Shown: positions 1 to 19,192 of the stretch, in pieces
Position numbering within the stretch: the first letter of the stretch is position 1
Layout: each line of letters opens with the position of its first letter
Virus record (IMG/VR): IMGVR_UViG_648861009_000003
DNA: 22,328 nt
Source of the DNA: a virus
Taxonomy: Duplodnaviria > Heunggongvirae > Uroviricota > Caudoviricetes
Reading direction: 5' to 3' (one strand)
The notes under the pieces: model-generated
What the model saw: only the letters and a program-made list of their open reading frames with translations
Database searches by the model: none
What the model was told of the DNA's origin: nothing
Made by a program: the position numbers and the translations under genes

Positions 1-1164
1 TTACGCCTTCTTTATATCCTCCATAATTCCAGAGTGGGACATATTTGGGACATTATCACCAAAAATGTCGTCTATTTTCCTCGCATGCTCTGTCAAATGA
101 TTAGGCGCAAGGTGAGCATACCTACGAACCATTTCTATGGACTCCCATCCGCCCATTTCCTGAAGCACTGATAATGGGACGCCTGACTGAATCAGCCAGC
201 TTGCCCAGGTGTGTCTGAGGTCATGGAAACGGAAATCTTCAATTCCTGCACGACGACAAGCTGATAGCCATGATGTCTTGCTGTCGATGCGCATCTTCCT
301 GACCGCAGGCGTTGATGTTCCATCTGCTCGCTTAGCCGCCTTGGTATGTACAAACACCCATTTGTGATGCTTGCCTATTTGATCACGCAACACTTTACAG
401 GCGGTATCGTTCAGCGCCACACCAATGGCGCGGTTTGATTTGCTCTCTTCTGGATTCACCCAGGCAACTCGTCGCTGCATGTCGATTTGTTGCCATTCCA
501 GATTTATGATGTTCGACTTTCTCAGACCAGTTGCCAGCGCAAACTTGACGACAGATTTCAGTGGTTCGGGGCACTCATCAATAAGGCGTTTTGCTTCCTC
601 CTTTTCCAGCCATCTGACTCGCTTGTTTCTGACCGCTGGTATCTTGATGACAGGCGCTTTTTCCAGCCACTTCCAGTCGCGTTCTGCAGCACGGAGAATG
701 GCCTTTATCATGGCAAGATGCTTTGCCTTTGTCTGAGTTGATACTGGCTTTGGTTCATAAACAGGCAGTTCTTTACCTTTCCTGATGGCGGCCTGAACTT
801 TCTGTTTCCATATTTCTTTCGTCTTTCTGTTATGCATTCTGCTTACAGCAGAGTAAATCTTTGCCTCCGAGATATCTTTAAGCCTTATACCCTCAAAATG
901 TTCAAGCCAGAACTCAATCCGGCTTTTATCTGAATCGAGAGATTTTTTATCAGCTTTTTCCTCAAGCCATCTTAGGCAGGCCTCTTCAAAAGTGACATCA
1001 GGTAAATCCCCTAGCTTTTCTACTCGCCAGAGTTCTGCTTTTCGCTTGTCGTGCAACTCCTGAGCTTGCCGCTTGTCCTTTGTGCCAAGAGATTCCTTAA
1101 TTCGTTTCCCGCCCGGGAGCGAATACGAGGCATACCATATTTCATTTCTGCGGAAGAGTGACAT
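1..1164 (-). CDS. int: Tyrosine-type site-specific integrase (DLP12 IntD-like)
   Basis: 387-aa ORF with C-terminal tyrosine-recombinase motifs ([11 protein letters not shown] ... VRRYAHL); N-terminus [21 protein letters not shown] resembles DLP12/P4-family integrases as I recall them. Stop codon is at window positions 1-3, so attL and the tRNA target lie outside the window to the left. Confidence 0.93.
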
Positions 1165-1391
1165 TTTCTTTCCTCTGTTATGCCATCACCCGCGCTCACC
1201 TGGACAGTATGCAGCGGAGACTGAAGCGCCGCAATGCAGGCTTGCCGTGTTGTGAGGTAAGGAGATTTTGGCTTGGTTGGATCTTTACGTGTTGCCTGTA
1301 GGCGGCCTGTTCGTATCCAGTTGGTGGCGGTTGGTCTGGATATCTTAAGAAACTGACAGGCCTCATCGAGTGTGAGGCTGTATGATTCCAT
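1020..1391 (-). CDS. xis: Excisionase-like HTH protein (Xis/AlpA type), start taken at MESYSL
   Basis: Directly upstream of int on the same strand and overlapping its 5' end; N-terminal segment [26 protein letters not shown] is a typical excisionase helix-turn-helix. The 123-aa length and 145-nt overlap with int are unusual, and the C-terminal half may be out-of-frame read-through. Confidence 0.5.
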
Positions 1392-1641
1392 GGTTACCTC
1401 TGCTTTTTGAACGCATGTCACGTAACTTCTTAATGTGTTCTGCCGTTTCGATCTCTTCTGCTATCCGATCTGCATCAGCTTTATTCACAGGTTCAAAGTC
1501 ATGATTAAAGCGGAACATGCTGGCGATACATGTTCTGCCTTTTCGGATGTAGTGAACTTTGTTGTGGGTAGAACGCAGGATTTTGCAGGGAGTGCCGTGG
1601 TGGTCGACGTACCAGGTGTTAGGAAAAATGATTCTGAACAT
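1363..1641 (-). CDS. Hypothetical early-left protein (92 aa)
   Basis: ORF in early-left orientation between xis and the zinc-finger gene; overlaps the xis start by 29 nt; no family recognised. Confidence 0.4.
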   Translation of the reverse strand: MFRIIFPNTWYVDHHGTPCKILRSTHNKVHYIRKGRTCIASMFRFNHDFEPVNKADADRIAEEIETAEHIKKLRDMRSKSRGNHGIIQPHTR

Positions 1642-1688
1642 TTTTACACCTCAGTTGGACGATGTTGAAATTTGCTGCTTTGAGGCCA

Positions 1689-1907
1689 TCATAGTCCCCA
1701 TTGTTTGTTCTTAAGTTCGATCTCCTCCTGGCAACTTGCACAAGTCCGACAACCCTGAACAGCCAGGCGTCTTCGCTCATCTATCGGATCGCCACACTCA
1801 CAACAATGAGTTGCGGATACAGTCTGGTAGTTCAGACGACGCATTTTTATTGCTGTATTGCGCTGTAATTCTTCGATTTCTGATGCTGAATCAATGATGT
1901 CTGCCAT
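1689..1907 (-). CDS. TraR/DksA-family C4 zinc-finger protein
   Basis: 72 aa with CxxC-x17-CxxC (CCECGDPIDERRRLAVQGCRTCASC), typical of the small phage TraR/DksA-like proteins found near xis in lambdoid phages. Confidence 0.8.
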   Translation of the reverse strand: MADIIDSASEIEELQRNTAIKMRRLNYQTVSATHCCECGDPIDERRRLAVQGCRTCASCQEEIELKNKQWGL

Positions 1908-1999
1908 CTTCCATTAATCCCTGAATTGTTGGTTAATACGCTTGAGGATGAATGCGAACAATAAAAAAGGAGCCTGTAGCTCCCTGATGATTTTGCTTT

Positions 2000-2221
2000 T
2001 CATGTTAACCGTTCCTTAAAGACGCCGTTTAACATGCCGATCGCCAGGCTTAAATGAGTCGGTGTGAATCCCATCAGCGTTACCGTTTCACGGTGCTTCT
2101 TCAGTACGCTACGGCAAATGTCATCGACGTTTTTATCCGGAAACTGCTGTCTGGCTTTTTTGATTTCAGAATTAGCCTGACGGGCAATGCTGCGAAGGGC
2201 GTTTTCCTGCTGAGGTGTCAT
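2000..2221 (-). CDS. Hypothetical protein (73 aa from MTPQQENAL...)
   Basis: ORF in the xis-to-exo accessory region on the early-left strand; start chosen at the internal ATG (2219-2221); no family recognised. Confidence 0.4.
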   Translation of the reverse strand: MTPQQENALRSIARQANSEIKKARQQFPDKNVDDICRSVLKKHRETVTLMGFTPTHLSLAIGMLNGVFKERLT

Positions 2222-2297
2222 TGAACAAGTCCCATGTCGGCAAGCATAAGCACACAGAATATGAAGCCCGCTGCCAGAAAAATGCATTCCGTGGCTG

Positions 2298-2489
2298 TCA
2301 TACCGGGTCTCTCTCATCTGCTTCTGCTTTCGCCACCATCATTTCCAGCTTTTGTGAAAGGGATGCGGCTAACGTATGAAATTCTTCGTCTGTTTCTACT
2401 GGTATTGGCACAAACCTGACTCCAATTTGAGCAAGGCTATGTGCCATCTCAATACTCGTTCTTAACTCAACAGGAGATGCTTTGTGCAT
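2298..2489 (-). CDS. Hypothetical protein (63 aa)
   Basis: Small early-left ORF between exo and xis, the position of the lambda ea/orf genes; no family recognised. Confidence 0.35.
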   Translation of the reverse strand: MHKASPVELRTSIEMAHSLAQIGVRFVPIPVETDEEFHTLAASLSQKLEMMVAKAEADERDPV

Positions 2490-2650
2490 ACCGCCTCCCG
2501 TTTATTATTTATCTTCTCAGCCAGCCGCTGTGCTTTCAGGGGATTTCTGATAACAGAAAGGCCGGGAAATACCCAGCCTCGCTTTGTAATGGAGTAGACG
2601 AAAGTGATCGCGCCTACCCGGATATTATCGTGAGGATGCGTCATCGCCAT
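2462..2650 (-). CDS. Hypothetical protein (62 aa)
   Basis: Small ORF immediately downstream of exo on the same strand, overlapping the exo 3' end by 10 nt and the next ORF by 28 nt; uncertain. Confidence 0.3.
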
Positions 2651-3321
2651 TGCTCCCCAAATACAAAACCAATTTCAGCCAGTGCCTCGTCCATTTTTTC
2701 GATGAACTCCGGCACCATCTCGTCAAAACTCGCCATGTAATTTTCATCCCGCTCAACCACGACATAATGCAGGCCTTCACGCTTCATTCGTGGGTCATAG
2801 TTGGCAAAGTACCAGGCATCTTTTCGCGTCACCCACATGCTGTACTGCACCTGGGCCATGTAAGCCGACTTTATGGCCTCGAAACCACCGAGCCGGAATT
2901 TCATGAAATCCCGGGAGGTAAACGGGCATTTCAGTTCAAGGCCGTTGCCGTCACTGCATAAACCATCGGGAGAGCAGGCGGTGCGCATACTTTCGTCGCG
3001 ATAGATGATCGGGGATTCAGTAACATTCACGCCGGAAGTAAACTCAAACAGGGCTCTGGCGTCGTTCTCGTACTGTTTTCCCCAGGCCAGCGCCTTAGCA
3101 TTAACTTCCGGAGCCACACCGGTGCAAACCTCAGCCAGCAGGGTGTGGAAGTAGGACATTTTCATGTCAGGCCACTTCTTTCCTGAGCGGGGCTTTGCTA
3201 TCACGTTGTGAACTTCTGAAGCGGTGATGACGCCGAGCCGTAATTTGTGCCATGCATCATCCCCCTGTTCGACAGCTCTCACGTCGATCCCGGTACGCTG
3301 CAGGATAATGTCCGGTGTCAT
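2641..3321 (-). CDS. exo: Lambda exonuclease (Red alpha)
   Basis: 226-aa translation [50 protein letters not shown]... is near-identical to lambda Exo as I recall it; start overlaps the bet stop (ATGA). Confidence 0.96.
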
Positions 3322-4103
3322 GCTGCCACCTTCTGCTCAGTGGCTTTCTGTTTCAGGAATCCAAGAGCTTTCACTGCTTCGGCCTGTGTCAGTTCTGACG
3401 ATGCGCGAATGTCGCGGCGAAATATCTGGGAACAGAGCGGCAATAAGTCGTCATCCCATGTTTTATCCAGGGCGATCAGCAGAGTGTTAATCTCCTGCAT
3501 GGTTTCATCGTTAACCGGAGTGATGTCGCGTTCCGGCTGACGTTCTGCAGTGTATGCGGTATTTTCGACAATGCGCTCGGCTTCATCCTTGTCATAGATA
3601 CCAGCAAATCCGAAGGCCAGACGGGCACACTGAATCATGGCTTTATGACGTAACATCCGTTTGGGATGCGACTGCCACGGTCCGGTGATTTCTCTGCCTT
3701 CGCGGGTTTTGAATGGTTCGCGGCGGCATTCATCCATCCACTCGGTAACGCAGATCGGATGATTGCGGTCCTTGCGGTAAATCCGGCATGTGCAGGATTC
3801 ATTGTCCTGCTCAAAGTCCATACCATCAAACTGCTGGTTTTCATTGATGATGCGGGACCAGCCATCAACGCCCACCACCGGAACGATGCCATTCTGCTTA
3901 TCAGGAAAGGCGTAAATTTCTTTCGTCCATGGATTAAGGCCGTACTGGTTGGCAACGATCAGTAATGCGATGAACTGCGCATCGCTGGCATCACCTTTAA
4001 ATGCCGTCTGGCGAAGAGTGGTGATCAGTTCCTGTGGGTCGACAGAATCCATGCCGACACGTTCAGCCAGCTTCCCTGCCAGCGTTGCGAGTGCTGTACT
4101 CAT
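3318..4103 (-). CDS. bet: Recombination protein Bet (Red beta, single-strand annealing)
   Basis: 261-aa translation [66 protein letters not shown]... matches lambda Beta. Confidence 0.96.
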
Positions 4104-4108
4104 CCGTT

Positions 4109-4368
4109 TTATACCTCTGAATCAATATCAACCTGGTGGTGAGCAATGGTTTCAACCATGTACCGGATGTGTTCTGCCATGCGCTCCTGAAACTCAACAT
4201 CGTCATCAAACGCACGGGTAATGGCTTTTTTGCTGGCCCCGTGGCGTTGCAAATGATCGATGCATAGCGATTCAAACAGGTGCTGGGGCAGGCCTTTTTC
4301 CATGTCGTCTGCCAGTTCTGCCTCTTTCTCTTTCACGGGTCGATCTGCTGGTAGTGACGCGCCCAGCT
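4109..4368 (-). CDS. gam: gam, 3' portion (copy A) abutting the N-gap; 5' end corrupted by indels
   Basis: Translation ...[74 protein letters not shown] matches the lambda Gam C-terminus; the last ~40 nt before the gap carry extra bases relative to copy B. Confidence 0.75.
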
Positions 4369-4814
4369 NNNNNNNNNNNNNNNNNNNNNNNNNNNNNNNN
4401 NNNNNNNNNNNNNNNNNNNNNNNNNNNNNNNNNNNNNNNNNNNNNNNNNNNNNNNNNNNNNNNNNNNNNNNNNNNNNNNNNNNNNNNNNNNNNNNNNNNN
4501 NNNNNNNNNNNNNNNNNNNNNNNNNNNNNNNNNNNNNNNNNNNNNNNNNNNNNNNNNNNNNNNNNNNNNNNNNNNNNNNNNNNNNNNNNNNNNNNNNNNN
4601 NNNNNNNNNNNNNNNNNNNNNNNNNNNNNNNNNNNNNNNNNNNNNNNNNNNNNNNNNNNNNNNNNNNNNNNNNNNNNNNNNNNNNNNNNNNNNNNNNNNN
4701 NNNNNNNNNNNNNNNNNNNNNNNNNNNNNNNNNNNNNNNNNNNNNNNNNNNNNNNNNNNNNNNNNNNNNNNNNNNNNNNNNNNNNNNNNNNNNNNNNNNN
4801 NNNNNNNNNNNNNN
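4369..4814. other. Run of 446 N (assembly/scaffold gap)
   Basis: Contiguous N characters; both flanks are copies of the same gam sequence. Confidence 0.95.
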
Positions 4815-5111
4815 CCGTTTATACCTCTGAATCAATATCAACCTGGTGTGAAGCAATGGTTTCAACCATGTACCGGATGTGTTCTGCCATGCGCTCCTGA
4901 AACTCACATCGTCATCAACGCACGGGTAATGGCTTTTTGCTGGCCCGTGGCGTTGCAAATGATCGATGCATAGCGATTCAAACAGGTGCTGGGGCAGGCC
5001 TTTTTCCATGTCGTCTGCCAGTTCTGCCTCTTTCTCTTCACGGGCGATCTGCTGGTAGTGACGCGCCCAGCTCTGAGCCTCAAGACGATCCTGAATGTAA
5101 TAAGCGTTCAT
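4815..5111 (-). CDS. gam: gam, copy B: intact start ([34 protein letters not shown]...) but 3' part frameshifted by single-base deletions near the gap
   Basis: The N-terminal 56 aa match short-form lambda Gam; downstream the sequence is the same as 4105..4368 but with at least 6 one-base deletions. No in-frame upstream ATG for a long Gam form. Confidence 0.75.
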
Positions 5112-5186
5112 GGCTGAACTCCTGAAAATGGCTGTGAAAAAATCGCCCGCGGAATGCCAGGCTGATTCGGAAAACAGGAAAGGGGA

Positions 5187-5477
5187 TTAGTGATTCAGAC
5201 CGTTGCCGCGTCCGTCGAGAAAAACTTCCACGAGCAAGTCACGGGTATAAGTGCGCTCAATGCCGCGATGCAGATAAAGTCGTCCGCGTAAATTAGCTGA
5301 TGCAGTCCAGGTACCATCTTTGCGTTTGACCAGCATTCCTGGCATGACCGCACCGCGATTAACGGTCTGCGTTCCGTAATGTTGATGAACCATAAAAACT
5401 CCTGCCCGTAAGCTGGGCTGCTGAACATATAAAGACTTCTGCGCGTATTCAGGCGGTGGATGGCCGCCGGTTGTCAT
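5187..5477 (-). CDS. Hypothetical early-left protein (96 aa), first ORF downstream of the putative pL
   Basis: ORF on the early-left strand upstream of gam, in the kil/cIII position; no family recognised; start codon uncertain (internal Met at MVHQHYG or MPGMLVK possible). Confidence 0.3.
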   Translation of the reverse strand: MTTGGHPPPEYAQKSLYVQQPSLRAGVFMVHQHYGTQTVNRGAVMPGMLVKRKDGTWTASANLRGRLYLHRGIERTYTRDLLVEVFLDGRGNGLNH

Positions 5478-5644
5478 AACTAAGCCGCCTCGTTGAAGCG
5501 ACTAAGGTATGAAATGTTGAGTTGATTTCAGCTGGTCACACCGACGTTCACGCGTCCGTTTCATCCCTCGCACTCCCCGAAGCCTGCTGAAATTCAAGCT
5601 GCGGATCTAAGCGGTCATCGCAACGGTGAATCAGGTAGTTGCCG

Positions 5645-5750
5645 TATCGTTGTGTTGTTGCGATGAACTTATTTAAAACTATAGTTGTTTTATCGTCAAC
5701 AACAAAAGTTGTTTTATTGGTTGTTTTAGATATAACTGGTTGTATTTAGG
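5645..5750 (-). promoter_or_regulatory. Candidate oL/pL operator-promoter region
   Basis: Cluster of TGGTTGT(T)/AACAAC motifs (5652-5660, 5683-5690, 5699-5704, 5708-5714, 5719-5726, 5738-5745) resembling the inverted half-sites in the cI-cro intergenic region. Confidence 0.35.
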
Positions 5751-5837
5751 ATGGATTTATTTTGTGACTTGAATCGCATAGCGATAACTGAAGCGAGGTT
5801 ATGGTGGTTTTTTTAACGGTGTGTGTGATGAGGGGAG

Positions 5838-5867
5838 GGCAAAAGAAAACCCGGCACGGTGGCCGGG
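5838..5867 (-). terminator. Rho-independent terminator downstream of the accessory operon
   Basis: Minus-strand RNA would form the GC-rich hairpin cccggccaccgtgccggg followed by ttttctttt, 8 nt after the stop of the 310-aa gene. Confidence 0.55.
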
Positions 5868-5875
5868 TAGCATCA

Positions 5876-6808
5876 CTATTCGATTTTTTTAACCATGTAG
5901 TTACGTCGTGATGTTCCTAATCTTTCATTGTGAATCTCAGAAACGCTTACTACGAGCGATATTCGTTCACCAACTTTATATTTACTTTGAATTTCTCCTA
6001 ACATATCAATCGGATAAGAAGCCTTTATTTTTCCAAGCTCGCTTGCAATCTCCAATTTCCCGTACATGGATAAAATAGCAAGTTCGCCTGATATATGCTC
6101 ATCCGGTAGCTGAATGACCTTCGTTAAAGCTAAGCGAGCATTCAGTTTTTTTATATCTTCTGAAGAAATTGACACTTGTCTGGTACCATCACTTAAAGGT
6201 CCAATCCAAGTAAGATCAAAGTTAAGACTATATTTTTCGCACTCATTTATGATGTTTTTTAGGTTAGCTGTTGATTGCGAACCAATTTCGGCAATTTTAG
6301 CCGTGAATGTTTCTTCATCAATGGATGAGAGTAGTGCAAAAATCTCCTTAACAGCATGACTGGATACTGTTTCGATGAGCTCGCAAGAACCAGTAGAAAA
6401 AGTAACACCTAACTTCGTCGAACCTGGACGCAAGTCTGCCAATCTCATGTCTAATGATTTTTTAACATCAATCGGCACACGACTAGAATCTTTCCCAGAT
6501 CCAAGTCGGTAAACTGCTTTCTGTACAAGGGATGCGAGATTACCTGAAATTACAGATAGAATATCTAACGGAATAGACCCGAAATCGACCAAAACACCTT
6601 TTAATCTCAACTCCATGAAATCACGTAAAGGATGTTGGTTATCGATTGCACGTTGTCTCTCTCGGAGATCGCTCAGATGGGAGTCAAGTGATCTAAATAT
6701 AATGTCATCAGCAAATGATCTCCCCTTATTTTGAGCAAGCAGATCCACATCGCGTTGAATGAACGCAATTCGCTCCTTGAGGGAGTTGAATGTTTTTTCT
6801 TCGCTCAT
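5876..6808 (-). CDS. Unknown 310-aa protein, second gene of the repressor-linked accessory operon
   Basis: Long ORF with no family recognised; start overlaps the upstream NTase-like gene by 4 nt (ATGA), implying translational coupling; contains R-x4-H (RSLDSH) and R-x5-H (RAIDNQH) strings that are too common to count as evidence of HEPN. Confidence 0.75.
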   Translation of the reverse strand: MSEEKTFNSLKERIAFIQRDVDLLAQNKGRSFADDIIFRSLDSHLSDLRERQRAIDNQHPLRDFMELRLKGVLVDFGSIPLDILSVISGNLASLVQKAVYRLGSGKDSSRVPIDVKKSLDMRLADLRPGSTKLGVTFSTGSCELIETVSSHAVKEIFALLSSIDEETFTAKIAEIGSQSTANLKNIINECEKYSLNFDLTWIGPLSDGTRQVSISSEDIKKLNARLALTKVIQLPDEHISGELAILSMYGKLEIASELGKIKASYPIDMLGEIQSKYKVGERISLVVSVSEIHNERLGTSRRNYMVKKIE

Positions 6809-7278
6809 AACATTACCCTCACGAGGCCTTTAGGATTCTCCTTCCGATCAAAACCAAACCACCCTCTCCAGTAACTTCGCCTTTCACTATAATCGATTTC
6901 TGGATGATTTTCAGGCAGCAAAAGAACGTCAATGCTGTAGTTTTCTTTAATAAAATCTCTATTTAACAATGAGCTGACCAATGGCATCAGCGTGTTTGGC
7001 AAAGAGTTTAGGGCCAAATAATCGACGACCACGAGTATATCTATGTCATCAGGTTCAGGTTTCTCTGTAGTGAATGAACCATCGATCCACACTTCAGAGA
7101 AACATAGACACTGCTGATTAACAAGTTTAAATTGCTCAATAAGCTGTATAAAATTACAGTATAGCATACTTCTTCTAACGGATTTTGGGAAGGTGTCGAC
7201 ACAAAGAGACTTGATGCCATCACTATCCATATCATGAAATCCTGCTGTAAGAAGAGGTGGGAAGCTAGGCTTTTCCAT
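6805..7278 (-). CDS. Minimal pol-beta-type nucleotidyltransferase-like protein (157 aa)
   Basis: Motif VWIDGSFTTEKPEPDDIDILVVVD fits the GS-x9-DxD signature of minimal nucleotidyltransferases, with a further acidic residue in YSIDVLLLPE; lies 81 nt downstream of the repressor gene on the same strand. Confidence 0.7.
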   Translation of the reverse strand: MEKPSFPPLLTAGFHDMDSDGIKSLCVDTFPKSVRRSMLYCNFIQLIEQFKLVNQQCLCFSEVWIDGSFTTEKPEPDDIDILVVVDYLALNSLPNTLMPLVSSLLNRDFIKENYSIDVLLLPENHPEIDYSERRSYWRGWFGFDRKENPKGLVRVML

Positions 7279-7359
7279 CCTAAGTCCTTGTTTATGCCAT
7301 ATAGTGTTCTATTTAATATTCTTGAAAAGAGTGTGCCTTAAAAAGCTACAGGCTAATTA

Positions 7360-8049
7360 TTAACCATGCTTCCTGTACGTCTGCGGCATGCTCCCAATAA
7401 CCTTACCGAAGATGAACACCCGGTTCATCTCGTCTTTCTCGATCGGGTCCCACGGTGAGTAGCTTTTGTTATCAGAGATGACCAGCAGCTTATCCTTCAT
7501 CATTTGCAGGCGCTTTACATGGGCTGTGTCGTCGTACAGAAACGCATAGATACCATCACCGTCGAAAGATTTAACTGTGATATCAACGAACAGCAGATCA
7601 CCTGGTTCGATCGTTCCTGACATGCTGTCACCACGCACGTTAATGATGCGGATATTTTCCGCCTTCCTACCATCGAACATGTGACGAGCATCGTCAAACG
7701 AGTACTCAACCGAGCGTAGAACTTCTACAAACTCACGGTTGATGACTCCCGGCCCAGCACTGACTTCTATATCAAGAACGTCAATCTTGAAGTATTTGGA
7801 ATGGCTGACAGTTGATTGTATTGGTTGCACTGTACTGTCTGACATATTTCCAACGCCAGAAGATAACCATTCTGCGCGCACACCCAAAGCGTTCGCGATC
7901 TCCACGATTTTAGTTGTTTGATTAGCTTTCCCTGTTTCGATTTTCTGAATAGCAGCCTGGCTAACCCCGACCAAATCCCCAAGCGCCTTTTGTGTAAGGC
8001 CTCGCGCTAATCTGGCTTCTTTAAGTCTTTCTGAGAGTGTTGTTTTCAT
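7360..8049 (-). CDS. cI: CI-like prophage repressor (HTH_XRE N-terminal domain plus S24 LexA-like peptidase domain)
   Basis: Start taken at MKTTLSERLKEARLARGLTQKALGDLVGVSQAAIQKIETGK (HTH); C-terminal ...INVRGDSMSGTIEPGDLLFVD...HVKRL carries the S24 Ser/Lys autocleavage motifs; divergent from the cro-like gene. Confidence 0.9.
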   Translation of the reverse strand: MKTTLSERLKEARLARGLTQKALGDLVGVSQAAIQKIETGKANQTTKIVEIANALGVRAEWLSSGVGNMSDSTVQPIQSTVSHSKYFKIDVLDIEVSAGPGVINREFVEVLRSVEYSFDDARHMFDGRKAENIRIINVRGDSMSGTIEPGDLLFVDITVKSFDGDGIYAFLYDDTAHVKRLQMMKDKLLVISDNKSYSPWDPIEKDEMNRVFIFGKVIGSMPQTYRKHG

Positions 8050-8054
8050 AGTCC

Positions 8055-8153
8055 AAATGTACAACCAAGGTTTTATTCCATCAAACGAAAATGGTTGTTG
8101 ACTAAAAACAACCATAGTTTTAATCTTGATTCAAATTAACCACGGAGGTTGTT
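8055..8153. promoter_or_regulatory. Candidate oR/pR/pRM region between cI and cro
   Basis: Divergent intergenic region containing the inverted repeat ATGGTTGTT-N7-AACAACCAT (8091..8115) and a further ACAACCA half-site (8061..8067). Confidence 0.5.
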
Positions 8154-8384
8154 ATGAACCCAGCTATCAAAACAGCGATCAATATCGTTGGTTCACAAAA
8201 GAAACTGGGCGCTGCTTGCGAAGTTTCACAGCAGGCCGTCTATAAGTGGCTTCACAACAAAGCAAAGGTATCCCCTGAACATGTCGGCAGCATTGTTACG
8301 GCTACTGGTGGAGTAGTGAAGGCATACCAGATTCGCCCGGATCTTCCGAAGTTGTTTCCACACACCGAAAAGAACGCAGCTTAA
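8154..8384 (+). CDS. cro: Cro-like HTH protein (YdaS family)
   Basis: 76 aa, divergent from the repressor; AINIVGSQKKLGAACEVSQQAVYKWL is an HTH resembling Rac YdaS-type Cro proteins. Confidence 0.8.
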   Translation: MNPAIKTAINIVGSQKKLGAACEVSQQAVYKWLHNKAKVSPEHVGSIVTATGGVVKAYQIRPDLPKLFPHTEKNAA

Positions 8385-8453
8385 ATTTCCATTTCACGCT
8401 CTTTAACAATAAGCAATCAACTTAACAGTCAATTCAAACTAAAGGAGTCAATT

Positions 8454-8993
8454 ATGCAACCACTTCCATACCAACAGACTAGCGGATTTAGCCCGACTGC
8501 GGTGATAAATCGTTCTCAAACAAAACAGGTGCCAGGCCACGAAAAAATCCGTGATGCCGTCCGCGCCTGGTCGGCTGTAGATAATCAGGATGTCGTTGCC
8601 ACACTCATTGTGAATGAGTATCGGGAGCAGGGCGGCGGCACCATCGATTTCCCTGATGATGTCAGCCGTGCACGCCAGAAGCTGTTCCGCTTCCTCGATA
8701 ACAAATTCGATTCTGAAAAATACCGAAATAACGTGCGTGAACTGACCCCGGCAATTCTGGCGGTACTACCGCTGGAATATCGCGGTTACCTGGTTGAGCA
8801 GGATAGCTTCATGGCTAGGTTGGCTGAAATGGAAAAGGAACTCAGTGAGGCAAAACAGGCTGTCATTCTCAACGCACCACGCCACCAGAAACTGAAGGAA
8901 ATTAGTGAAGGTATTGTATCGATGTTTCGTGTGGACCCAGATCTGGCTGGTCCATTGATGGCGATGGTTACTACCATGCTGGGGGCGATATGA
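8454..8993 (+). CDS. YdaT-like protein in the cII position
   Basis: 179 aa; segments EYREQGGGTIDFPDD and LTPAILAVLPLEYRGYL resemble the Rac YdaT family as I recall it; located between cro and O. Confidence 0.65.
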   Translation: MQPLPYQQTSGFSPTAVINRSQTKQVPGHEKIRDAVRAWSAVDNQDVVATLIVNEYREQGGGTIDFPDDVSRARQKLFRFLDNKFDSEKYRNNVRELTPAILAVLPLEYRGYLVEQDSFMARLAEMEKELSEAKQAVILNAPRHQKLKEISEGIVSMFRVDPDLAGPLMAMVTTMLGAI

Positions 8994-9079
8994 CAGGTTC
9001 AGAAATGGCGAAAGCCGGTCTGCTGGAACAGAACCGACTTTCAGGTGCAAATCGTAACACACTCATTGCGGGAGGAATT

Positions 9080-10009
9080 ATGGCAAACACTGCTGAGATA
9101 TTCAATTTTCCAGTGCCGGATGCGGCACAAAAGGAGCCGCGCGTGGCAGATCTCGATGATGGTTATACGCGCATTGCAAATGAGTTGCTGGAAGCTGTGA
9201 TGCTGGCCGGATTAACACAGCACCAGCTTCTGGTCTTCCTGGCTGTCATGCGCAAAACATATGGCTTTAATAAAAAACTGGATTGGGTGAGCAACGAGCA
9301 ACTTTCCGAATTGACCGGGATATTGCCGCACAAGTGTTCTGCTGCAAAAAGCGTTCTGGTAAAGCGTGGGATTCTTATTCAGAGCGGGCGGAATATCGGC
9401 ATTAATAATGTGGTCAGTGAATGGTCAACATTACCCGAATCAGGTAAGAAAAATAAAGTTTACCTGAAAGAGGTAAATTTACCTGAATCAGGTAAGAAAA
9501 GTTTACCCAAATCAGGTAAAGGCGTTTACCCGAATCAGGTAAACACAAAAGACAAACTAACAAAAGACAATATAAAACCTTTTTCGTCCGAGAATTCTGG
9601 CGAATCCTCTGACCAGCCAGAAAACGATCTTCCTGTGGTGAAACCGGATGCTGCAATTCAGAGCGGCAGCAAGTGGGGGACAGCAGAAGACCTGACCGCC
9701 GCAGAGTGGATGTTTGACATGGTGAAGACTATCGCACCATCAGCCAGAAAACCGAATTTTGCTGGGTGGGCTAACGATATCCGCCTGATGCGTGAACGTG
9801 ACGGACGTAACCACCGCGACATGTGCGTGCTGTTCCGCTGGGCCTGCCAGGACAACTTCTGGTCCGGTAACGTGCTGAGTCCGGCCAAACTCCGCGACAA
9901 GTGGACCCAGCTCGAAATCAACCGGAACAAGCAACAGGCTGGCGTGACAGTCGGCAAACCAAAACTCGACCTGACAAACACTGACTGGATTTACGGGGTG
10001 GATCTATGA
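9080..10009 (+). CDS. O: Replication initiator O (chimeric: divergent N-terminal iteron-binding domain, lambda-like C-terminal domain)
   Basis: Start taken at MANTAEIFNF (GGAGG SD) by analogy to lambda O MTNTAKILNF; the C-terminal ~150 aa (SENSGESSDQPENDL...WTQLEINRNKQQAGV...DWIYGVDL) match lambda O; iterons lie inside the gene. Confidence 0.9.
   Translation: MANTAEIFNFPVPDAAQKEPRVADLDDGYTRIANELLEAVMLAGLTQHQLLVFLAVMRKTYGFNKKLDWVSNEQLSELTGILPHKCSAAKSVLVKRGILIQSGRNIGINNVVSEWSTLPESGKKNKVYLKEVNLPESGKKSLPKSGKGVYPNQVNTKDKLTKDNIKPFSSENSGESSDQPENDLPVVKPDAAIQSGSKWGTAEDLTAAEWMFDMVKTIAPSARKPNFAGWANDIRLMRERDGRNHRDMCVLFRWACQDNFWSGNVLSPAKLRDKWTQLEINRNKQQAGVTVGKPKLDLTNTDWIYGVDL
9431..9585. repeat. Replication origin: five 17-bp iterons plus an A-rich region inside O
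   Basis: ttacccgaatcaggtaa (9431), ttacctgaaagaggtaa (9459), ttacctgaatcaggtaa (9479), ttacccaaatcaggtaa (9503), ttacccgaatcaggtaa (9526), followed by acacaaaagacaaactaacaaaagacaatataaaacc. Confidence 0.8.
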
Positions 10010-10707
10010 AAAACATCGCCGCACAGATGGTTAACTTTGACCGTGAGCAGATGCGTCGGATCGCCAACAACATGCCGGAACAGTATGACGAAAAGCCACA
10101 GGTACAGCAGGTAGCGCAGATCATCAACGGTGTGTTCAGCCAGTTACTGGCAACTTTCCCGGCGAGCCTGGCTAATCGTGAGCAGAACGAACTGAACGAA
10201 ATCCGCCGCCAGTGGGTTCTGGCTTTCCGGGAAAACGGGATCACCACGATGGAACAGGTTAACGCAGGAATGCGCGTAGCCCGTCGGCAGAATCGACCAT
10301 TCCTGCCATCCCCCGGACAGTTTGTAGCCTGGTGCCGGGAAGAAGCATCCGTTATTGCCGGACTACCAAACACCAGCGAGCTGGTTGATATGGTTTACGA
10401 GTATTGCCGGAAGCGTGGCCTGTATCCGGATGCAGAGTCTTATCCGTGGAAATCAAACGCGCACTACTGGCTGGTTACCAACCTGTATCAGAACATGCGG
10501 GCCAATGCGCTTACTGATGCGGAATTACGGCGCAAGGCTGCCGATGAACTGACTTGTATGACCGCGCGAATTAACCGTGGTGAGGCGATACCTGAACCAG
10601 TAAAACAACTTCCTGTCATGGGCGGTAGACCTCTAAATCGTGCACAGGCTCTGGCGAAGATCGCAGAAATCAAAGCGAAGTTCGGACTGAAAGGAGCAAC
10701 TGTATGA
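10006..10707 (+). CDS. P: Replication protein P (DnaB helicase loader)
   Basis: 233-aa translation MKNIAAQMVNFDREQMRRIANNMPEQYDEKPQVQQVAQIINGVFSQLL... is near-identical to lambda P. Confidence 0.96.
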   Translation: MKNIAAQMVNFDREQMRRIANNMPEQYDEKPQVQQVAQIINGVFSQLLATFPASLANREQNELNEIRRQWVLAFRENGITTMEQVNAGMRVARRQNRPFLPSPGQFVAWCREEASVIAGLPNTSELVDMVYEYCRKRGLYPDAESYPWKSNAHYWLVTNLYQNMRANALTDAELRRKAADELTCMTARINRGEAIPEPVKQLPVMGGRPLNRAQALAKIAEIKAKFGLKGATV

Positions 10708-11006
10708 CGGGCAAAGAGGCAATTATTCATTACCTGGGGACGCATAAGAGCTTCTGTGCGCAGGACGTTGCTGCGGTAACAGGCGCAACAGTAACCAGTA
10801 TAAATCAGGCTGCGGCTAAAATGGCACGGGCAGGAATCTTGGTCGTTGATGGTAAGGTCTGGCGAACGGTGTATTACCGGTTCGCTACCAGGGAAGAACG
10901 GGAAGGAAAGGTGAGCACGAATCTGATTTTCAAGGAGTGTCGCCAGAGTGCCGCGATGAAACGAGTGTTGGCAGTGTATGGAGATATGAACTTAAACTTG
11001 CTGTGA
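10704..11006 (+). CDS. ren: Ren (Rex-exclusion protein) with a divergent C-terminus
   Basis: MTGKEAIIHYLGTHKSFCAQDVAAVTGATVTSINQAAAKMARAGILVVDGKVWRTVYYRFATREEREGK... matches lambda Ren except for the last ~8 residues. Confidence 0.9.
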   Translation: MTGKEAIIHYLGTHKSFCAQDVAAVTGATVTSINQAAAKMARAGILVVDGKVWRTVYYRFATREEREGKVSTNLIFKECRQSAAMKRVLAVYGDMNLNLL

Positions 11007-11254
11007 CGGTTTTCATCGGTAACACACCATGTAATCTAGCAGTCAGCTTAGAAATAGGAGCGGCAGTTAAAGATTTTTCAGTTAGTAGAAAATTACTGTT
11101 ATTGCAGGGATCTAATCACCGGAGAGTCGTTCCATTTGTCTTATGATTACCTGAAGTCCGTTAGTTCGTTGGTAATCACCGTTTTTGTTAGAGAAGTAAG
11201 CATCGCTGACAAAATATTCTCAACGATGCCTGCTTTATTGCTACTACAAATTAA

Positions 11255-12756
11255 TTAAATTGCATCTGCAAACTCTGGGGTTTTTCGCTCAGGTATAATT
11301 GATGAGTTGCTGTTGTCACTTTTTTTATTTTCATGATTACGAATAGCCAATGACTCATTAAAGTCTTTTGCGACTGCTGTCTCAATAAATTCAATTTCTG
11401 AATCAGAGTGTTTTTTAACAGCTTCTTTGATCTCATCCAGAGTAACATAGAAAAACTCTTTTCTACGATTTACAAGATTGACTCTCTTTTTATCGAAGAC
11501 ATCATGTAGTTTTTTTCTAATGATGGAGCGTCCTCCGAATAAATCATGGCATGTACATCAAAAATAAAAGGAACAGATGCATCACCGAGCTCATTTACAC
11601 GGTCTTGCGGATCAAGACGTCGTGTCATGCCTATTTTATAAACATTCTCCCCAAAAGAACCTATGTTCGAAATAATATAAACATGACCTTGTTTGGTTTG
11701 TTGTGCCATGGATAATGCTCTTTGATGCTTTGATTCAGCCTGCGACAAACTCTGTTCTAGTTCGGCAATGCGATTTTCGAGGCGCTGCTTCATGTCACCA
11801 GTAACTTTTTCCATTTCCTTTCTTGCAGCTTCAATTGCTTTTTTATAACGGCGCTCTTCTGCCTCTGCGTCTTGCATGGCCTTTTCTATTTCTCGTTGTG
11901 CACGCTCCTCCTCTCTCATTTGTGCCCTTATTTCTGCCTGTTCTTCTTTTTCTTTCTGTTTTTGCTCACGATATTCATGGGTAAGCCACAATTCCTCAAG
12001 TTTTTTATTGAGGTATTTAGTGTTTATATATATGTGATTTTGCTCGTTTAGTTTATTTATGGCCTCAAATGCCTTTGTGATGCGTTCTTCCATTTTAGTG
12101 ATGTTTTTCCACGTGCAATTGCTAATTGCAGCATCACATTCATTATTAAATGCTCTAGTAGTTAGCCTGATATTTCTGTCTGTCATTTTTTTACCCTCTG
12201 CTCGAGAGCCTTCAACAGTCCATTGGGTTGTACAATATACTGCGCCAGAGTGGGTTTTATCCCGCAGCATTAATTTCTGTTCATCCCTGATGGATTTTAT
12301 TTTGTTTTTAAATTGCTCTGAATCTTCAAAATTAAAATGAGGTTCGTAAAATCCTAGTTCGGCTAGCTCAACATCTTCTGAATAAATAGAAATTTGCCTT
12401 ACTAGTTTATCATATATTTCTTTCTTCTCTTTATAAGTTCTTCTTAGCTCTTGGATTTGTTTATTGATACCATCCATTTTTTCAATGGTGTTTGTTAGTT
12501 CATTATTGGCATTTTCTTTTACTTTTAGGGATTCTTCTTTTATTATGGAGCATTCTTGCTCTGTTTTCTCAATAAGCTTCTTACATTCTTCTTCTACATT
12601 AAAATAATCTGCAAAGCGAGATTTGTATTCTTCATTTTTTTGATTGCTATCACTTAATTCTAATTGTATTTTTTTGATGCGTTTGATTGCAGCTATATAA
12701 AGAACAAGAACAACCAATAAAAATATGATTGCAAGTAATAGAGGAGTTTGAGTCAT
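11255..12756 (-). CDS. DUF4041/T5orf172 (GIY-YIG-like)-family protein with N-terminal TM helix and long coiled-coil; reading frame broken at a T7 homopolymer (11510..11516)
   Basis: The 428-aa ORF (11470..12756) contains GHVYIISNIGSFGENVYKIGMTRRLDPQDRVNELGDASVPFIFDVHAMIYSEDAPSL; the family-typical C-terminus LHDVFDKKRVNLVNRRKEFFYVTLDEIKEAVKKH... continues in the -1 frame to a stop at 11255. N-terminus LLLAIIFLLVVLVLYIAAI is hydrophobic; the gene is strongly AT-rich. Confidence 0.75.
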
Positions 12757-13065
12757 TCGTGCTATTCCTTACGGACAATTTAAGACGTTTTGTATTAAAT
12801 CCTGTTCAATGTGTATGCGGGTGATTGCTACCGCTTACAATCTTCATAATTATCAGTTAGATAGACTCGCTAGTAAATAATTTCATTTTTTGCAATATTC
12901 TTATTGAATATTTCAATTTATGAAATGAACTCTTTATCCTTTCAAGGTGAAAGGTTTCTTCTTCGGAAATATTTGCTCTCGTGTGACGTATAAAGACCTT
13001 TGATTTTCAAAAATCAGTAGGGAATAATATAGTTACTGTCGGCCTGAACACCCGGTGGTGGGGTT

Positions 13066-13155
13066 GCGCTAAACGGGGACGTTTATGCGCACACACAATC
13101 CAAACTCTCATCTCCATTCACAGATGCAGAAATGCACCTACGATTTTTTACATTC
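13066..13155. repeat. Direct repeat copy 1 (~90 bp, about 92% identical to 14999..15088)
   Basis: gcgctaaacggggacgtttatgcgcacacacaatccaaactctcatctccattcacagatgcagaaatgcacctacgattttttacattc. Confidence 0.9.
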
Positions 13156-13246
13156 GGTGTTTTACTTCGACAGCCAGAATTGGGAGTCTCTATTCGTCTG
13201 GCGGCTAAAGGTGATATGGAAATCGTTATGTTTTGGCCTGAGGTAG
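13085..13246 (+). CDS. Small ORF (53 aa) sharing an SD and N-terminal ~20 aa with the ylcH-like ORF
   Basis: GGGGAC SD followed by ATG; MRTHNPNSHLHSQMQKCTYDFLH... parallels [23 protein letters not shown] of the second repeat copy; could be a duplicated gene start rather than a functional gene. Confidence 0.3.
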   Translation: MRTHNPNSHLHSQMQKCTYDFLHSVFYFDSQNWESLFVWRLKVIWKSLCFGLR

Positions 13247-13568
13247 TTGTAACTGTTGTAGCAGCTATGGATGTGATCATCATGGTGTCCATTTACTGGG
13301 GTTGACGACATGATTTATCCGGCGCTATATTCTGTGCGTTGCCGCAAAATCGGCACACGGGATTGGCGTCCCGGGATACTACTCAACGCATACCGCGTTA
13401 AGCGGTTTTTTTGTGCGCTAAGCACGGCTATGCCCAAATTATGGTGGGCTGTGTGAGGGCTTCTTCGGAAGCGCCGGGTTTGAGTAGCCGGTTACGCCAA
13501 CCTTACACAGTTCACCACCAGTCGATTGGCGTCGTTGGTGGTGATGGTTAACCTGATGAGGTGATACT

Positions 13569-14177
13569 ATGACTACTCAATTAGCATTCCACAAAACGAC
13601 GTTTACCCCGATTTGCCACAATAACAGAATTTGGCTTACTGCCACTGAAGTTGGTTTAGCACTGGAATATGCGGACGATAAAGCAGTTCAGCGCATTTAC
13701 TCTCGGCACTCAGATGAATTCACAGATATGATGACAAGGGTGGTCAAAGTGACCACCCCTCGTGGAATGCAGGAGTCTCGAGTATTTAGCCTTCGCGGAG
13801 CCCATTTGATCGCCATGTTTGCTCGTACTCCTGTGGCCAAAGAATTCCGCCGCTGGGTTCTGGATATTCTCGATCGAGAAGTTCAACAATCCCCAATCAC
13901 AAAACAATTCACTGATAACGAACTTTGCACACTCGCCTGGTTATGGCGAGCAAGTGATACGATGTTAACCGCCTGCCAGAACGTTACGCCCCTTCTTCAG
14001 GTCGCAGAGCATCGCGAAGCAGGTAGATTCACTTCAATCGAACAAGAATATCCTCGGATACTCAACAGGGCGCGAGAAATCCTTGCCAGAGAAACGGCGC
14101 ATGTAAAATTCCAACCGTGGCAGGATGATAAGTGGAGTCGTGTGTTACCATATTTCCGTCAGAATCTGTTGCAATAA
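13569..14177 (+). CDS. Bro-N / P22 AR N-terminal domain protein (Roi/antirepressor-like)
   Basis: 202 aa; N-terminal IWLTATEVGLALEYADDKAVQRIYSRH...SRVFSLRGAHLIAMFARTPVAKEFRRWVLDIL fits the Bro-N/AntA-type domain pattern. Confidence 0.75.
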   Translation: MTTQLAFHKTTFTPICHNNRIWLTATEVGLALEYADDKAVQRIYSRHSDEFTDMMTRVVKVTTPRGMQESRVFSLRGAHLIAMFARTPVAKEFRRWVLDILDREVQQSPITKQFTDNELCTLAWLWRASDTMLTACQNVTPLLQVAEHREAGRFTSIEQEYPRILNRAREILARETAHVKFQPWQDDKWSRVLPYFRQNLLQ

Positions 14178-14194
14178 AGTCACTAGTTAGAAAT

Positions 14195-14238
14195 ACTGCC
14201 AGCATTCTGCGATGACGGAAGTGCTGGCATTTTTTTTG
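14195..14238 (+). terminator. Rho-independent terminator after the Bro-N gene
   Basis: ctgccagcat...gtgctggca stem followed by tttttttt, 20 nt after the stop codon. Confidence 0.5.
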
Positions 14239-14412
14239 GTAATGTGCGAGTCCATTTCATAAAATACGGGTACTGGAACTGGACGATATAATCTAAAAGA
14301 TACCATTATCAGTAGCATTAAAATCGCTATGTGCCGATACGGATATAAATTATATTGATTGTTCACATACCTTATTGGATATTACTGAGGGGTGTTTATA
14401 TAAGGTGTAACG

Positions 14413-14937
14413 ATGATGTGGAACTTTGACAGTGCCGACTTAAGTGCAATAGCAGCAGGCATTTCTGCGTTTGGCACATTAGCCGCAGCGGGGTCGGCGC
14501 TTGCAAGTTGGTGCACGTCAAAAAAAGCGCTGCAGCTACAAAATAGAGTTTACCTTTATGAGTCTTTAAAGGCTTGCGCTGAGAGAGCCAATTCATCAGC
14601 TAAAGATAAGCGCGGATCTGAATGGAGCGTTAATGATGCAGCGGATATCATCAGGTGCCTAGTACGGGCGATGGAGCTCATCAAGCAGGATAGCCAGCAG
14701 AAAGAAGGTAATCAGGCATTAATGTTGAAACAGTACTTTGTTAATCTGCTAATAATGGAACTGTACGAGGAAGTTCATAACGGTGATGCGGCTGATTCTG
14801 TTTTTAAAAGTACGGAACCTACACAAGTACTTGATAACTTATGGAGCAAATGGCAGGAGGCTATAGCTTTTTTGATATTTGGAATTACCCAGTTGCGACT
14901 GAGGAAGACTTGGCAGACTAATTTTCAGCACATTTGA
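14413..14937 (+). CDS. Unknown 174-aa protein with an N-terminal hydrophobic (membrane-anchor-like) segment
   Basis: ORF with its own upstream AT-rich promoter-like region after a terminator; residues ~11-34 (LSAIAAGISAFGTLAAAGSALASW) are hydrophobic; no family recognised. Confidence 0.6.
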   Translation: MMWNFDSADLSAIAAGISAFGTLAAAGSALASWCTSKKALQLQNRVYLYESLKACAERANSSAKDKRGSEWSVNDAADIIRCLVRAMELIKQDSQQKEGNQALMLKQYFVNLLIMELYEEVHNGDAADSVFKSTEPTQVLDNLWSKWQEAIAFLIFGITQLRLRKTWQTNFQHI

Positions 14938-14998
14938 TTTCCAATAATCAACCAGCCATAATCATGCCATTGGAGCTTGAACAACTCCGGTGACTTCT

Positions 14999-15088
14999 GC
15001 GCTAAACGGGGACGTTTATGCGCACATACAATCCAAACTCTCTTCTCCCTTCACAGATGCAGAGATGCACCTGCGATTTTTTGCATCC
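14999..15088. repeat. Direct repeat copy 2 (~90 bp)
   Basis: gcgctaaacggggacgtttatgcgcacatacaatccaaactctcttctcccttcacagatgcagagatgcacctgcgattttttgcatcc. Confidence 0.9.
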
Positions 15089-15119
15089 AGCGTTTGACCT
15101 CTGCGGAGGTGAAGCGTGA
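15018..15119 (+). CDS. ylcH: Small ORF (33 aa), ylcH-like
   Basis: SD plus ATG within repeat copy 2; [33 protein letters not shown]; sits directly upstream of ybcN as ylcH does in DLP12 (order recalled from memory). Confidence 0.4.
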
Positions 15120-15571
15120 ACCTCCCACAAGACGGCATCAAATTGCATCGTGGTAACTTCACCGCTATCGGCCAGCAGATCCAGCCTTATCTGGAGGAAG
15201 GCAAATGCTTTCGCATGGTGCTTAAACCGTGGCGTGAGAAACGCAGTCTTTCCCAGAATGCACTCAGCCACATGTGGTACAGCGAAATCAGTGAATACCT
15301 CATCAGCAGGGGTAAAACGTTCGCCACTCCAGCTTGGGTAAAAGATGCTCTCAAACACACATATCTCGGTTATGAAACCAAAGACCTGGTTGATGTCGTA
15401 ACCGGTGAGATCACCACTATCCAGTCGTTACGCCATACCTCCGATCTTGATACCGGAGAGATGTATATCTTCCTGTGTAAGGTTGAAGCCTGGGCGGTGA
15501 ATATTGGCTGCCACCTGACTATTCCGCAGAGCTGCGAGTTCCAGCTGCTGCGCGACAAGCAGGAGGCGTAA
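15116..15571 (+). CDS. ybcN: NinB-family recombination protein (YbcN-like)
   Basis: 151 aa with a GTG start; first gene of a tightly overlapping nin operon; the [16 protein letters not shown] region resembles the lambda NinB SLDQN motif. Confidence 0.75.
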
Positions 15572-15741
15572 TGGCTACACCGCTTATTCGTGTCATGAAC
15601 GGACACATCTACAGAGTACCAAATCGTCGTAAGCGTAAACCTGAGCTGAAGCCATCCGAAATACCAACACTGCTCGGATATACCGCCAGCTTGGTTGATA
15701 AAAAATGGTTGCGACTGGCAGCAAGGAGGAATCATGGCTGA
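15571..15741 (+). CDS. ninE: NinE-family protein (56 aa)
   Basis: [56 protein letters not shown] matches DLP12 NinE as I recall it; TAATG overlap with ybcN; shorter than the 60-aa ORF-track cutoff. Confidence 0.75.
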   Translation: MATPLIRVMNGHIYRVPNRRKRKPELKPSEIPTLLGYTASLVDKKWLRLAARRNHG

Positions 15742-16024
15742 TTTGAGAAAAGCAGCGCGTGGTCGGGAATGCCAGGTAAGAATCCCTGGCGTATGTAATG
15801 GCAATTCTGAGACGTCTGTACTGGCACATATCCGGCTGGCTGGATTGTGCGGTACCGGTATCAAACCGCCAGACCTGATTGCCACCATTGCATGTTCTGC
15901 CTGCCACGACGAAATCGACCGCCGCACGCATTTTGTTGACGCTGGATATGCAAAAGAATGCGCGCTGGAAGGTATGGCGAGAACGCAGGTTATCTGGCTG
16001 AAAGAGAGGGTAATTAAGGCGTGA
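15734..16024 (+). CDS. ybcO: YbcO-like protein (DUF1364, cysteine/histidine-rich putative nuclease)
   Basis: Start taken at [23 protein letters not shown]...[13 protein letters not shown]; overlaps the ninE 3' end and is followed by rusA, as in DLP12. Confidence 0.8.
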
Positions 16025-16383
16025 ATACTTACCACATCACACTACCCTGGCCTCCGAGCAATAATCGCTATTACCGCCATAATCGCGGGCGCACGCACGT
16101 CAGCGCAGAGGGGCAGGCATACCGCGATAACGTCGCCCGAATCATTAAAAACGCAATGCTGGATATCGGCCTGGCTATGCCTGTGAAAATCCGCATTGAG
16201 TGCCACATGCCGGATCGCCGTCGCCGTGACCTGGATAATCTGCAAAAAGCCGCTTTTGACGCACTCACTAAAGCAGGTTTCTGGCTGGATGATGCTCAGG
16301 TCGTTGATTACCGCGTTGTGAAGATGCCTGTTACCAAAGGTGGGAGGCTGGAACTGACCATCACCGAAATGGGGAATGAATGA
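16021..16383 (+). CDS. rusA: Holliday-junction resolvase RusA
   Basis: 120-aa translation [42 protein letters not shown]...[29 protein letters not shown] matches RusA. Confidence 0.95.
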
Positions 16384-16878
16384 TGTTTGAGTTTAATATN
16401 NNNNNNNNNNNNNNNNNNNNNNNNNNNNNNNNNNNNNNNNNNNNNNNNNNNNNNNNNNNNNNNNNNNNNNNNNNNNNNNNNNNNNNNNNNNNNNNNNNNN
16501 NNNNNNNNNNNNNNNNNNNNNNNNNNNNNNNNNNNNNNNNNNNNNNNNNNNNNNNNNNNNNNNNNNNNNNNNNNNNNNNNNNNNNNNNNNNNNNNNNNNN
16601 NNNNNNNNNNNNNNNNNNNNNNNNNNNNNNNNNNNNNNNNNNNNNNNNNNNNNNNNNNNNNNNNNNNNNNNNNNNNNNNNNNNNNNNNNNNNNNNNNNNN
16701 NNNNNNNNNNNNNNNNNNNNNNNNNNNNNNNNNNNNNNNNNNNNNNNNNNNNNNNNNNNNAGAACTTCTTCGCCACCGCTGGGGGCGTCTGCGCTTATAT
16801 CGTTTCCCCGGCTCTGTTTTGACCGATTACCGAATACTGAAGAATTACGCCAAAACACTGACAGGAGCAGGAGTATGA
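16380..16878 (+). CDS. ylcG: ylcG-like small gene split by the N-gap (5' part 16380..16399, 3' part 16761..16878)
   Basis: The 5' flank encodes MMFEFN and the 3' flank encodes [38 protein letters not shown]; joined by about 3 nt they would reconstitute a 46-aa protein matching DLP12 YlcG as I recall it. Confidence 0.6.
16400..16760. other. Run of 361 N (assembly/scaffold gap)
   Basis: Contiguous N characters; the flanks are the two halves of ylcG. Confidence 0.95.
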
Positions 16879-16963
16879 AGTCAGAGATAACAATCAACTA
16901 ATACTGTTTTGTTGATTTTTGCTTGTAATTGGCGTTCTGGTCTGAGTTTTGTGGAGTAAGTTG

Positions 16964-17347
16964 ATGCGTGATATTCAGATGGTTCTTGAGCGTTGGGGAG
17001 CGTGGGCGGCTAATAATCATGAAGATGTGACCTGGTCGTCCATTGCCGCCGGTTTTAAGGGATTAATTCCTTCAAAAGTAAAATCTCGCCCGCAATGTTG
17101 TGACGATGACGCGATGATCATTTGCGGGTGCATGGCCCGTCTGAAAAAGAACAACAGCGATTTGCACGATTTATTAGTAGATTATTATGTAGTCGGTATG
17201 ACATTCATGTCACTGGCAGGTAAGCATTGCTGCTCTGATGGTTATATCGGGAAAAGGTTACAAAAGGCTGAGGGCATAATTGAAGGGATGTTAATGGCAT
17301 TAGATATCCGGTTAGAGATGGATATCGTTGTTAATAACTCTAATTAA
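16964..17347 (+). CDS. quuD: Late-gene antiterminator Q (QuuD/phage 82 type)
   Basis: [60 protein letters not shown]... matches DLP12 QuuD; GGAG SD upstream of the ATG at 16964. Confidence 0.9.
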
Positions 17348-17369
17348 TATGCCAATTGTTTACTAAAAA

Positions 17370-17525
17370 TTATTAAAAATGGGGCGTTGAGACGCCCCCA
17401 AAAATAAAGGGTAATATATAACAGAAGGTTTATATAGTTAGAAGCAAGGTTGTGCTTCTAAAGGAAGTGGCTTGAGGGAGCCACTTATATGTTGGGGAGG
17501 CAACGCCTCCCGCAACATATCTTTT
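17370..17525. promoter_or_regulatory. Cluster of four GC-rich hairpins between Q and the nmpC 3' end (candidate pR'/qut/tR' and/or nmpC terminators)
   Basis: ggggcgttgagacgcccc; agaagcaaggttgtgcttct; gtggcttgagggagccac; gggaggcaacgcctccc. Confidence 0.4.
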
Positions 17526-17536
17526 TCGTAATCAGA

Positions 17537-18619: not shown

Positions 18620-19047
18620 CGTGAGCCCTTTTTTTTGAACTATTATTAAAAAATGATGTCACTGCGCGATAAATATTCATCTAATCAATGTGATTATTTC
18701 AAGATGTAAGTTTTGGTTTCTCGTTTAATTTGTGAAGTAGATCTCTATTTTTATCTGAACTTTTTTCTATCGAATCCTATTCATGGCTCTTGGCTGAATA
18801 AAAATAAATCTATTAGCCAATTTATATTAATGGCTGTTATTTATAAGTGCTCTATAATTTGAAGGTTCAATTTAAATTGGCTAAAAATAACGCTGGAAAT
18901 TATTTGTTGGTTATTTGTTGAGATTTGCTTATGTATTTGTAGTGGTGTTTTCAATACTCGGTAGCATTCTCGCAAATATCATTTAGTGGTTTACGTACGT
19001 AAAAAATTGGTTATGCTGTTAAGAGTGGTTACTTCGTCACACAGCTT

Positions 19048-19078
19048 AAACCCGCCGTCGAGCGGGTTTTTCCATTTT
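19048..19078 (+). terminator. Rho-independent terminator upstream of the holin gene (candidate tR')
   Basis: aaacccgccgtcgagcgggtttttcc: stem cccgc/gcggg followed by a T-run, about 115 nt upstream of the holin start. Confidence 0.5.
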
Positions 19079-19192
19079 TTGAGTCTCGATATTAGCTGAT
19101 AACCCAATACCTGAGTTATTCACTGACTCCGAGTCTGTTACGTTTCGTAGTATTCCCTCAATTTACACCCGCTTTGTCTGCGAGGTGGGGTT

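Follow-up and report, generated by a model that had tools for sequence, protein, structure and literature searches.

The window, that is, the whole stretch of 22,328 nucleotides analysed here, is part of the 438-kb NCBI scaffold GG774902.1 (GCA_000163215.1) and consists of three contig pieces, at positions 1-4368, 4815-16399 and 16761-22328. These pieces are separated by two N runs, one of 446 N (4369-4814) and one of 361 N (16400-16760). The window starts exactly with the integrase gene intD (1-1164). In L001, a region fetched from the complete E. coli genome NZ_CP032515.1 and to which the three window pieces were aligned, intD adjoins a tRNA-Arg gene; the sequence is therefore assigned to a lambdoid prophage at the argU (DLP12) site.

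The prophage carries a Red operon on the minus strand, in which gam lies directly upstream of bet and exo. The exo gene (2641-3321) encodes an intact 226-aa protein of the lambda exonuclease/YqaJ family, as supported by its ORF, the L001 annotation and PF09588 in the source gene calls. The intact 261-aa product of bet (3318-4103) is a RecT-family recombinase, recognised by Pfam PF03837 (115.6 bits) and annotated as such in L001. Beyond gam lies an intact kilR-type cell-division inhibitor gene (5187-5477, minus strand), annotated in L001 and called as either 68 or 96 aa. This gene is the putative early-left ORF of the original prediction. The KilR family PF27398 appears among the precomputed gene calls both for the source record and for its relatives; in our own scan, the 68-aa form of this ORF gave no Pfam match.

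Other features of the prophage deserve mention. The slot extending from kilR to the S24-peptidase repressor (window 5876-7281) is variable among otherwise near-identical prophages. In the window, it contains an unannotated 310-aa ORF (5876-6808) and an upstream DUF6932 gene, while the same slot holds HipA_2 and DUF3037 in locus L023, DUF7946/DUF7947 in L024, and Peptidase_M78 with DUF4411 in L012 and L013. The slot looks like a hotspot for cargo or defence genes. An OmpC-like porin gene is found at ~17540-18620, between the Q antiterminator and the holin, and an 89-bp imperfect direct repeat (13065-13153 and 14998-15086, 93% identical) brackets the Bro-N/P22AR-C gene region and the next ORF.

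The gam sequence on either side of the N run

The segment between bet and the kilR-type gene contains gam sequence twice. Copy A (4104-4368, minus strand, 265 nt) forms the 3' end of the first contig piece and comprises the gam-bet spacer, the gam stop codon and codons ~13-98. Copy B (4815-5072, minus strand, 258 nt) forms the 5' end of the second piece and covers the same 263-bp stretch of gam. It is followed by the unique 5' end of the gene (5073-5111, minus strand), which occurs only once and provides codons 1-13, with the ATG at 5111-5109. The 446 N at 4369-4814 are an unstranded scaffold gap placeholder, and blastn found no third copy of gam within the window. The original prediction that the same gam segment stands on both sides of the gap was correct, and its boundaries needed slight adjustment, with 4104 as the start of the left copy (a shift of 1 nt) and 5072 as the end of the right one (a shift of 8 nt). 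In a local alignment, the copies share 257 of 266 columns, with no substitutions and nine single-base indels (blastn E = 5e-117). The three differences that the prediction had offered as examples were all found: ccgttttat/ccgtttat at 4104/4815, ggtggtgagc/ggtgtgaagc at 4135/4845, and aactcaacatc/aactcacatc at 4190/4901.

The placeholder is also present in the NCBI record itself, which bears on the idea that a downstream database laid the Ns as a mask over real sequence. Some collections do mask a few stretches with N. Nevertheless, the separately fetched GG774902.1 stretch, in reverse complement, matches window 1109-7336 exactly, and the run of 446 N is part of the match; thus, the Ns stand in the deposited record and are not a later mask. 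Masking, moreover, would not create flanking duplicates that differ by indels, and the chance that this explanation is right is minute.

The gam homology reaches both N edges, ending at 4368 and resuming at 4815. This would agree with a true tandem duplication with a period of ~711 bp, comprising gam and part of the kilR region, in which the Ns cover real sequence and both gam copies have decayed. Such a period fits the sum of 263 bp and 446 N, and a repeat that exceeds the read length also breaks contigs. Nonetheless, the nature of the differences makes this reading very improbable. The 263-bp segment has nine indels and no substitutions, compared with only ~1 probable indel error left in the other ~21 kb of the window, and the errors are complementary: in each copy they are confined to the part beside the gap, and that part is clean in the other copy. 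A genuinely duplicated segment would also be expected to show high coverage and clean sequence instead of error-rich ends.

The position of each error was established against the related loci L001, L015 and L018. Copy A is correct over 4104-4332 and has two extra T, at 4333 and 4340, which lie 36 nt and 29 nt short of the Ns, respectively. Copy B has seven errors, comprising one-base deletions at 4818, 4849, 4907, 4917, 4939 and 4944 and an inserted A at 4851, which lie 4, 35, 93, 103, 125, 130 and 37 nt from the N edge, respectively; from 4945 on its sequence is correct. Two errors therefore fall in the final 36 nt of the first piece and seven in the initial 130 nt of the second, as the original prediction of errors concentrated near the gap edges had anticipated. 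At all nine differences, the references side with the more distant copy, and the error is in the one nearer the gap, indicating that the differences are contig-end errors and not divergence. Among the 11 indels that distinguish the window from L001, nine lie inside the copies, which represent 2.4% of the bases (P = 1.6e-13 under a uniform model). The indel error rate is ~5% per base at both contig ends, against ~0.005% elsewhere. Run-length changes account for eight of the nine copy errors. Miscalled run lengths are the error type of flow-based sequencing, and their predominance suggests that a 454-type chemistry was used.

The error-bearing 28-mer AACCTGGTGTGAAGCAATGGTTTCAACC had no matches in viral contigs or in genome contigs, and an exact-protein lookup in a 153-billion-gene index recovered the sequence of the 75-aa ORF of copy A from a single contig only, scaffold GG774902.1.

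The reading frames of the two copies are complementary as well. A single frame in copy A covers residues 25-98 of Gam plus the stop codon; it is lost 29-36 nt short of the Ns. Copy B together with 5073-5111 encodes residues 1-56 from the ATG at 5111, followed by repeated frameshifts. When the clean halves were merged, with the 5' part taken from copy B and the 3' part from copy A, they yielded a 98-aa protein equal to the annotated Gam of L001, and three different cut points gave the same result. The proposal that neither copy is intact and that the two together encode an intact Gam was thus borne out. The merged protein matches Pfam PF06064 with 216.8 bits (cut-off 25), residues 1-98 aligning with profile positions 1-98. 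It also aligns over residues 1-98 with the lambda GamS chains 5mbv_A and 2uuz_A (E ~2.5e-61), with 96-97% identity. Judging from this identity, the merged protein is predicted to act as a RecBCD inhibitor of the GamS type. The ATG at 5111 is preceded, 26 codons upstream, by an in-frame stop, which rules out a long-form (138-aa) Gam.

The gam locus in independent assemblies

The left and right flanks of the gap each match more than 3,000 complete E. coli genomes. A 263-bp overlap of the flanks was observed in the nine E. coli genomes common to the best ten of these more than 3,000 matches for both flanks. In L001, the first piece (window 1-4368) aligns with 1354-5719, the second (4815-16399) with 5457-17048 and the third (16761-22328) with 17052-22619; pieces 1 and 2 consequently overlap by 263 bp. 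The closest relative, recovered by exact-protein lookup, is L015, a locus on a 5.2-Mb contig of assembly GCA_028594585.1, which shows no substitutions relative to all three pieces, over ~20.7 kb. Here, pieces 1 and 2 again overlap by 263 bp, at 17685-17947, and L018 shows a 263-bp overlap of the flanks as well. Three further indels found against L015 are missing in the comparison with L019, a locus of the unrelated draft assembly GCA_053571725.1, and so belong to L015 itself. Relative to the scaffold, the true locus is 706 bp shorter, since 969 nt are reduced to 263. The original prediction was right that the scaffold is too long and came close in its estimate of the excess (~715 bp).

Two gam matches were found in the source record only. 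Each of the 15 other fetched loci that reach gam has one, and gam is single-copy in all 190 matching phage records (190 places). Together with the stop codon upstream of the ATG at 5111, this single-copy state supports the earlier claim that the real locus has one intact short-form gam. It also weighs heavily against an isolate in which the gam-kilR junction would be tandemly duplicated (~0.7 kb), the Ns would stand for real sequence and the indels would in part be genuine pseudogenising mutations. The related assemblies have no second copy, the copies are free of substitutions with respect to each other, and the L015 prophage, identical in substitution terms over 20.7 kb, has one gam. An isolate of this kind is accordingly regarded as highly unlikely.

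The related loci compared have no insert at the gam position, which is relevant to the suggestion that a mobile element or another insert in gam lies unsequenced under the Ns, with the flanking repeat as its target-site duplication. N runs sometimes conceal IS elements that break assemblies, and IS elements do occur near the prophage in relatives: L015 has an IS1-type transposase at its start, and L011 contains a DDE transposase. The target-site duplications that IS elements and transposons produce, however, measure ~2-14 bp, far below 263 bp; the copies differ by error-type indels only; 446 bp is less than typical IS elements; and an insert at gam was absent from every relative. An insertion is thus an explanation of negligible probability, and the preferred reading remains an undetected overlap between two contig ends.

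A contig of SRR058105 (Logan) was considered as a candidate from the same isolate and was rejected, since it shows two mismatches and one gap in 3.3 kb relative to the window. According to its coordinates, this contig covers window ~6269-16302 only and falls short of gam.

Another assembly also breaks in this region. In L019, the contig terminates inside gam, at 17646-17728, equivalent to window 5029-5111. In addition, the top complete-genome relatives have two matching places per record (Red region), the second elsewhere in the chromosome; the best place per record is the one shown. Assemblies seem to break repeatedly at gam or in the Red region. Given the L019 contig end inside gam and the second Red region in the top relatives, a repeat boundary between prophages is a plausible cause of the contig break; low coverage is another candidate.

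The second N run and other indel sites

The second N run (16400-16760) interrupts the 46-codon ylcG gene. Its 361 N correspond to three bases (GGC) in L001, L015 and L019, where there is no overlap of the flanks, and ylcG is probably intact in reality. This gap is therefore inflated by 358 bases. As 361 N stand for three bases in one gap and 446 N stand for -263 bp in the other, the lengths of N runs in this scaffold are uninformative, which deprives the ~711-bp period of its value as evidence for a tandem duplication. Mismatches relative to L001 at 16395, 16766 and 16784, next to this gap, were considered as contig-end errors and were discarded as such, because the window shares its bases at these positions with both L015 and L019 and the differences are real alleles.

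In the third piece, 20 of the 22 substitutions relative to L001 lie in 21461-22173, from DUF1398/ynfO to the Nu1 region. Both L015 and L019 are equal to the window in this interval, which makes it a mosaic boundary between prophage lineages.

Two homopolymer sites outside the copies were also evaluated. In the T run at 11504-11510, the window has T6, which shortens the SNIPE/DUF4041-MUG113 gene (window 11470-12756, minus strand) from 500 aa in L001 to 428 aa plus a downstream ORF of 65 aa. The change from T7 to T6 at 11510 was rejected as a homopolymer error, as the 428-aa product is present in 45 blocks of independent assemblies. This frameshift allele in a homopolymer is real and widespread; the gene could be a pseudogene, or the site a slippage-prone tract. 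At 14868-14874, the window has T6 where L001, L015, L018 and L019 have T7, and the shorter run shifts the frame of a 169-aa hypothetical ORF (start 14413) over its final ~17 codons. Outside the gam copies, this is probably the one sequencing error of the window.

An undetected contig overlap and its known counterparts

The duplicated gam is almost certainly an artefact of assembly and scaffolding, that is, one gene written twice and not a real feature of the genome. This agrees with the original attribution of the locus to low-quality contig ends scaffolded with Ns, for which the 263-bp overlap on the references, the end-clustered errors and the single copy in relatives all argue. Pieces 1 and 2 overlap by 263 bp within gam, with both ends full of single-base run-length errors. 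An error density of ~5% in the terminal 40-130 nt may have kept the assembler from joining the ends. The scaffolder, unable to write a negative gap, would then have placed an estimated or padded run of Ns, with the pieces in the right order. The outcome is one gam in two versions, each frameshifted in its gap-side half. The real locus is an ordinary Red/early-left operon of a lambdoid prophage beside tRNA-Arg, with exo, bet, one intact 98-aa gam and kilR.

For the biology of the prophage, the result has no consequence, as what is left is a lambda-type Red operon of the ordinary kind, with a single intact gam. Its importance concerns data hygiene. The public GG774902.1 record overstates the locus by 706 bp and yields two spurious Gam fragments in gene-call collections. 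These artefactual Gam-family calls measure 121 aa (2160-2522 in the fetched scaffold region L002, equivalent to window 4815-5177) and 75 aa (L002 3001-3228, window 4109-4336). In scans for duplications, pseudogenes or novel inserts, direct repeats around an N run whose only differences are indels should be treated as contig overlaps.

The reconstructed locus has a known counterpart in phage lambda. The merged protein has the length of lambda Gam (GamS, 98 aa; PDB 2uuz, 2uv1 and 5mbv) and, like it, a full match to the Pfam Gam family; it differs from the lambda chain 5mbv at three positions (I22L, L39I and A61S). The gene order of the lambda Red operon, exo-bet-gam-kil, is conserved here, with gam beside bet and exo. 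In contrast to lambda, the kil neighbour belongs to the KilR type instead of being lambda Kil, whose family PF06301 was found in L011 only, and because of the upstream in-frame stop this prophage can encode only the short form of Gam.

As an assembly feature, the locus corresponds to the negative gap known from draft scaffolds. Both share a common terminal sequence, an arbitrary or estimated run of Ns and single-base indels clustered at the contig ends, and both have the same effect on annotation, which is a gene split into two frameshifted fragments. An overlap of 263 bp is rather long compared with the usual unmerged overlap, and this length is accounted for by the indel rate of ~5% in the terminal 40-130 nt.
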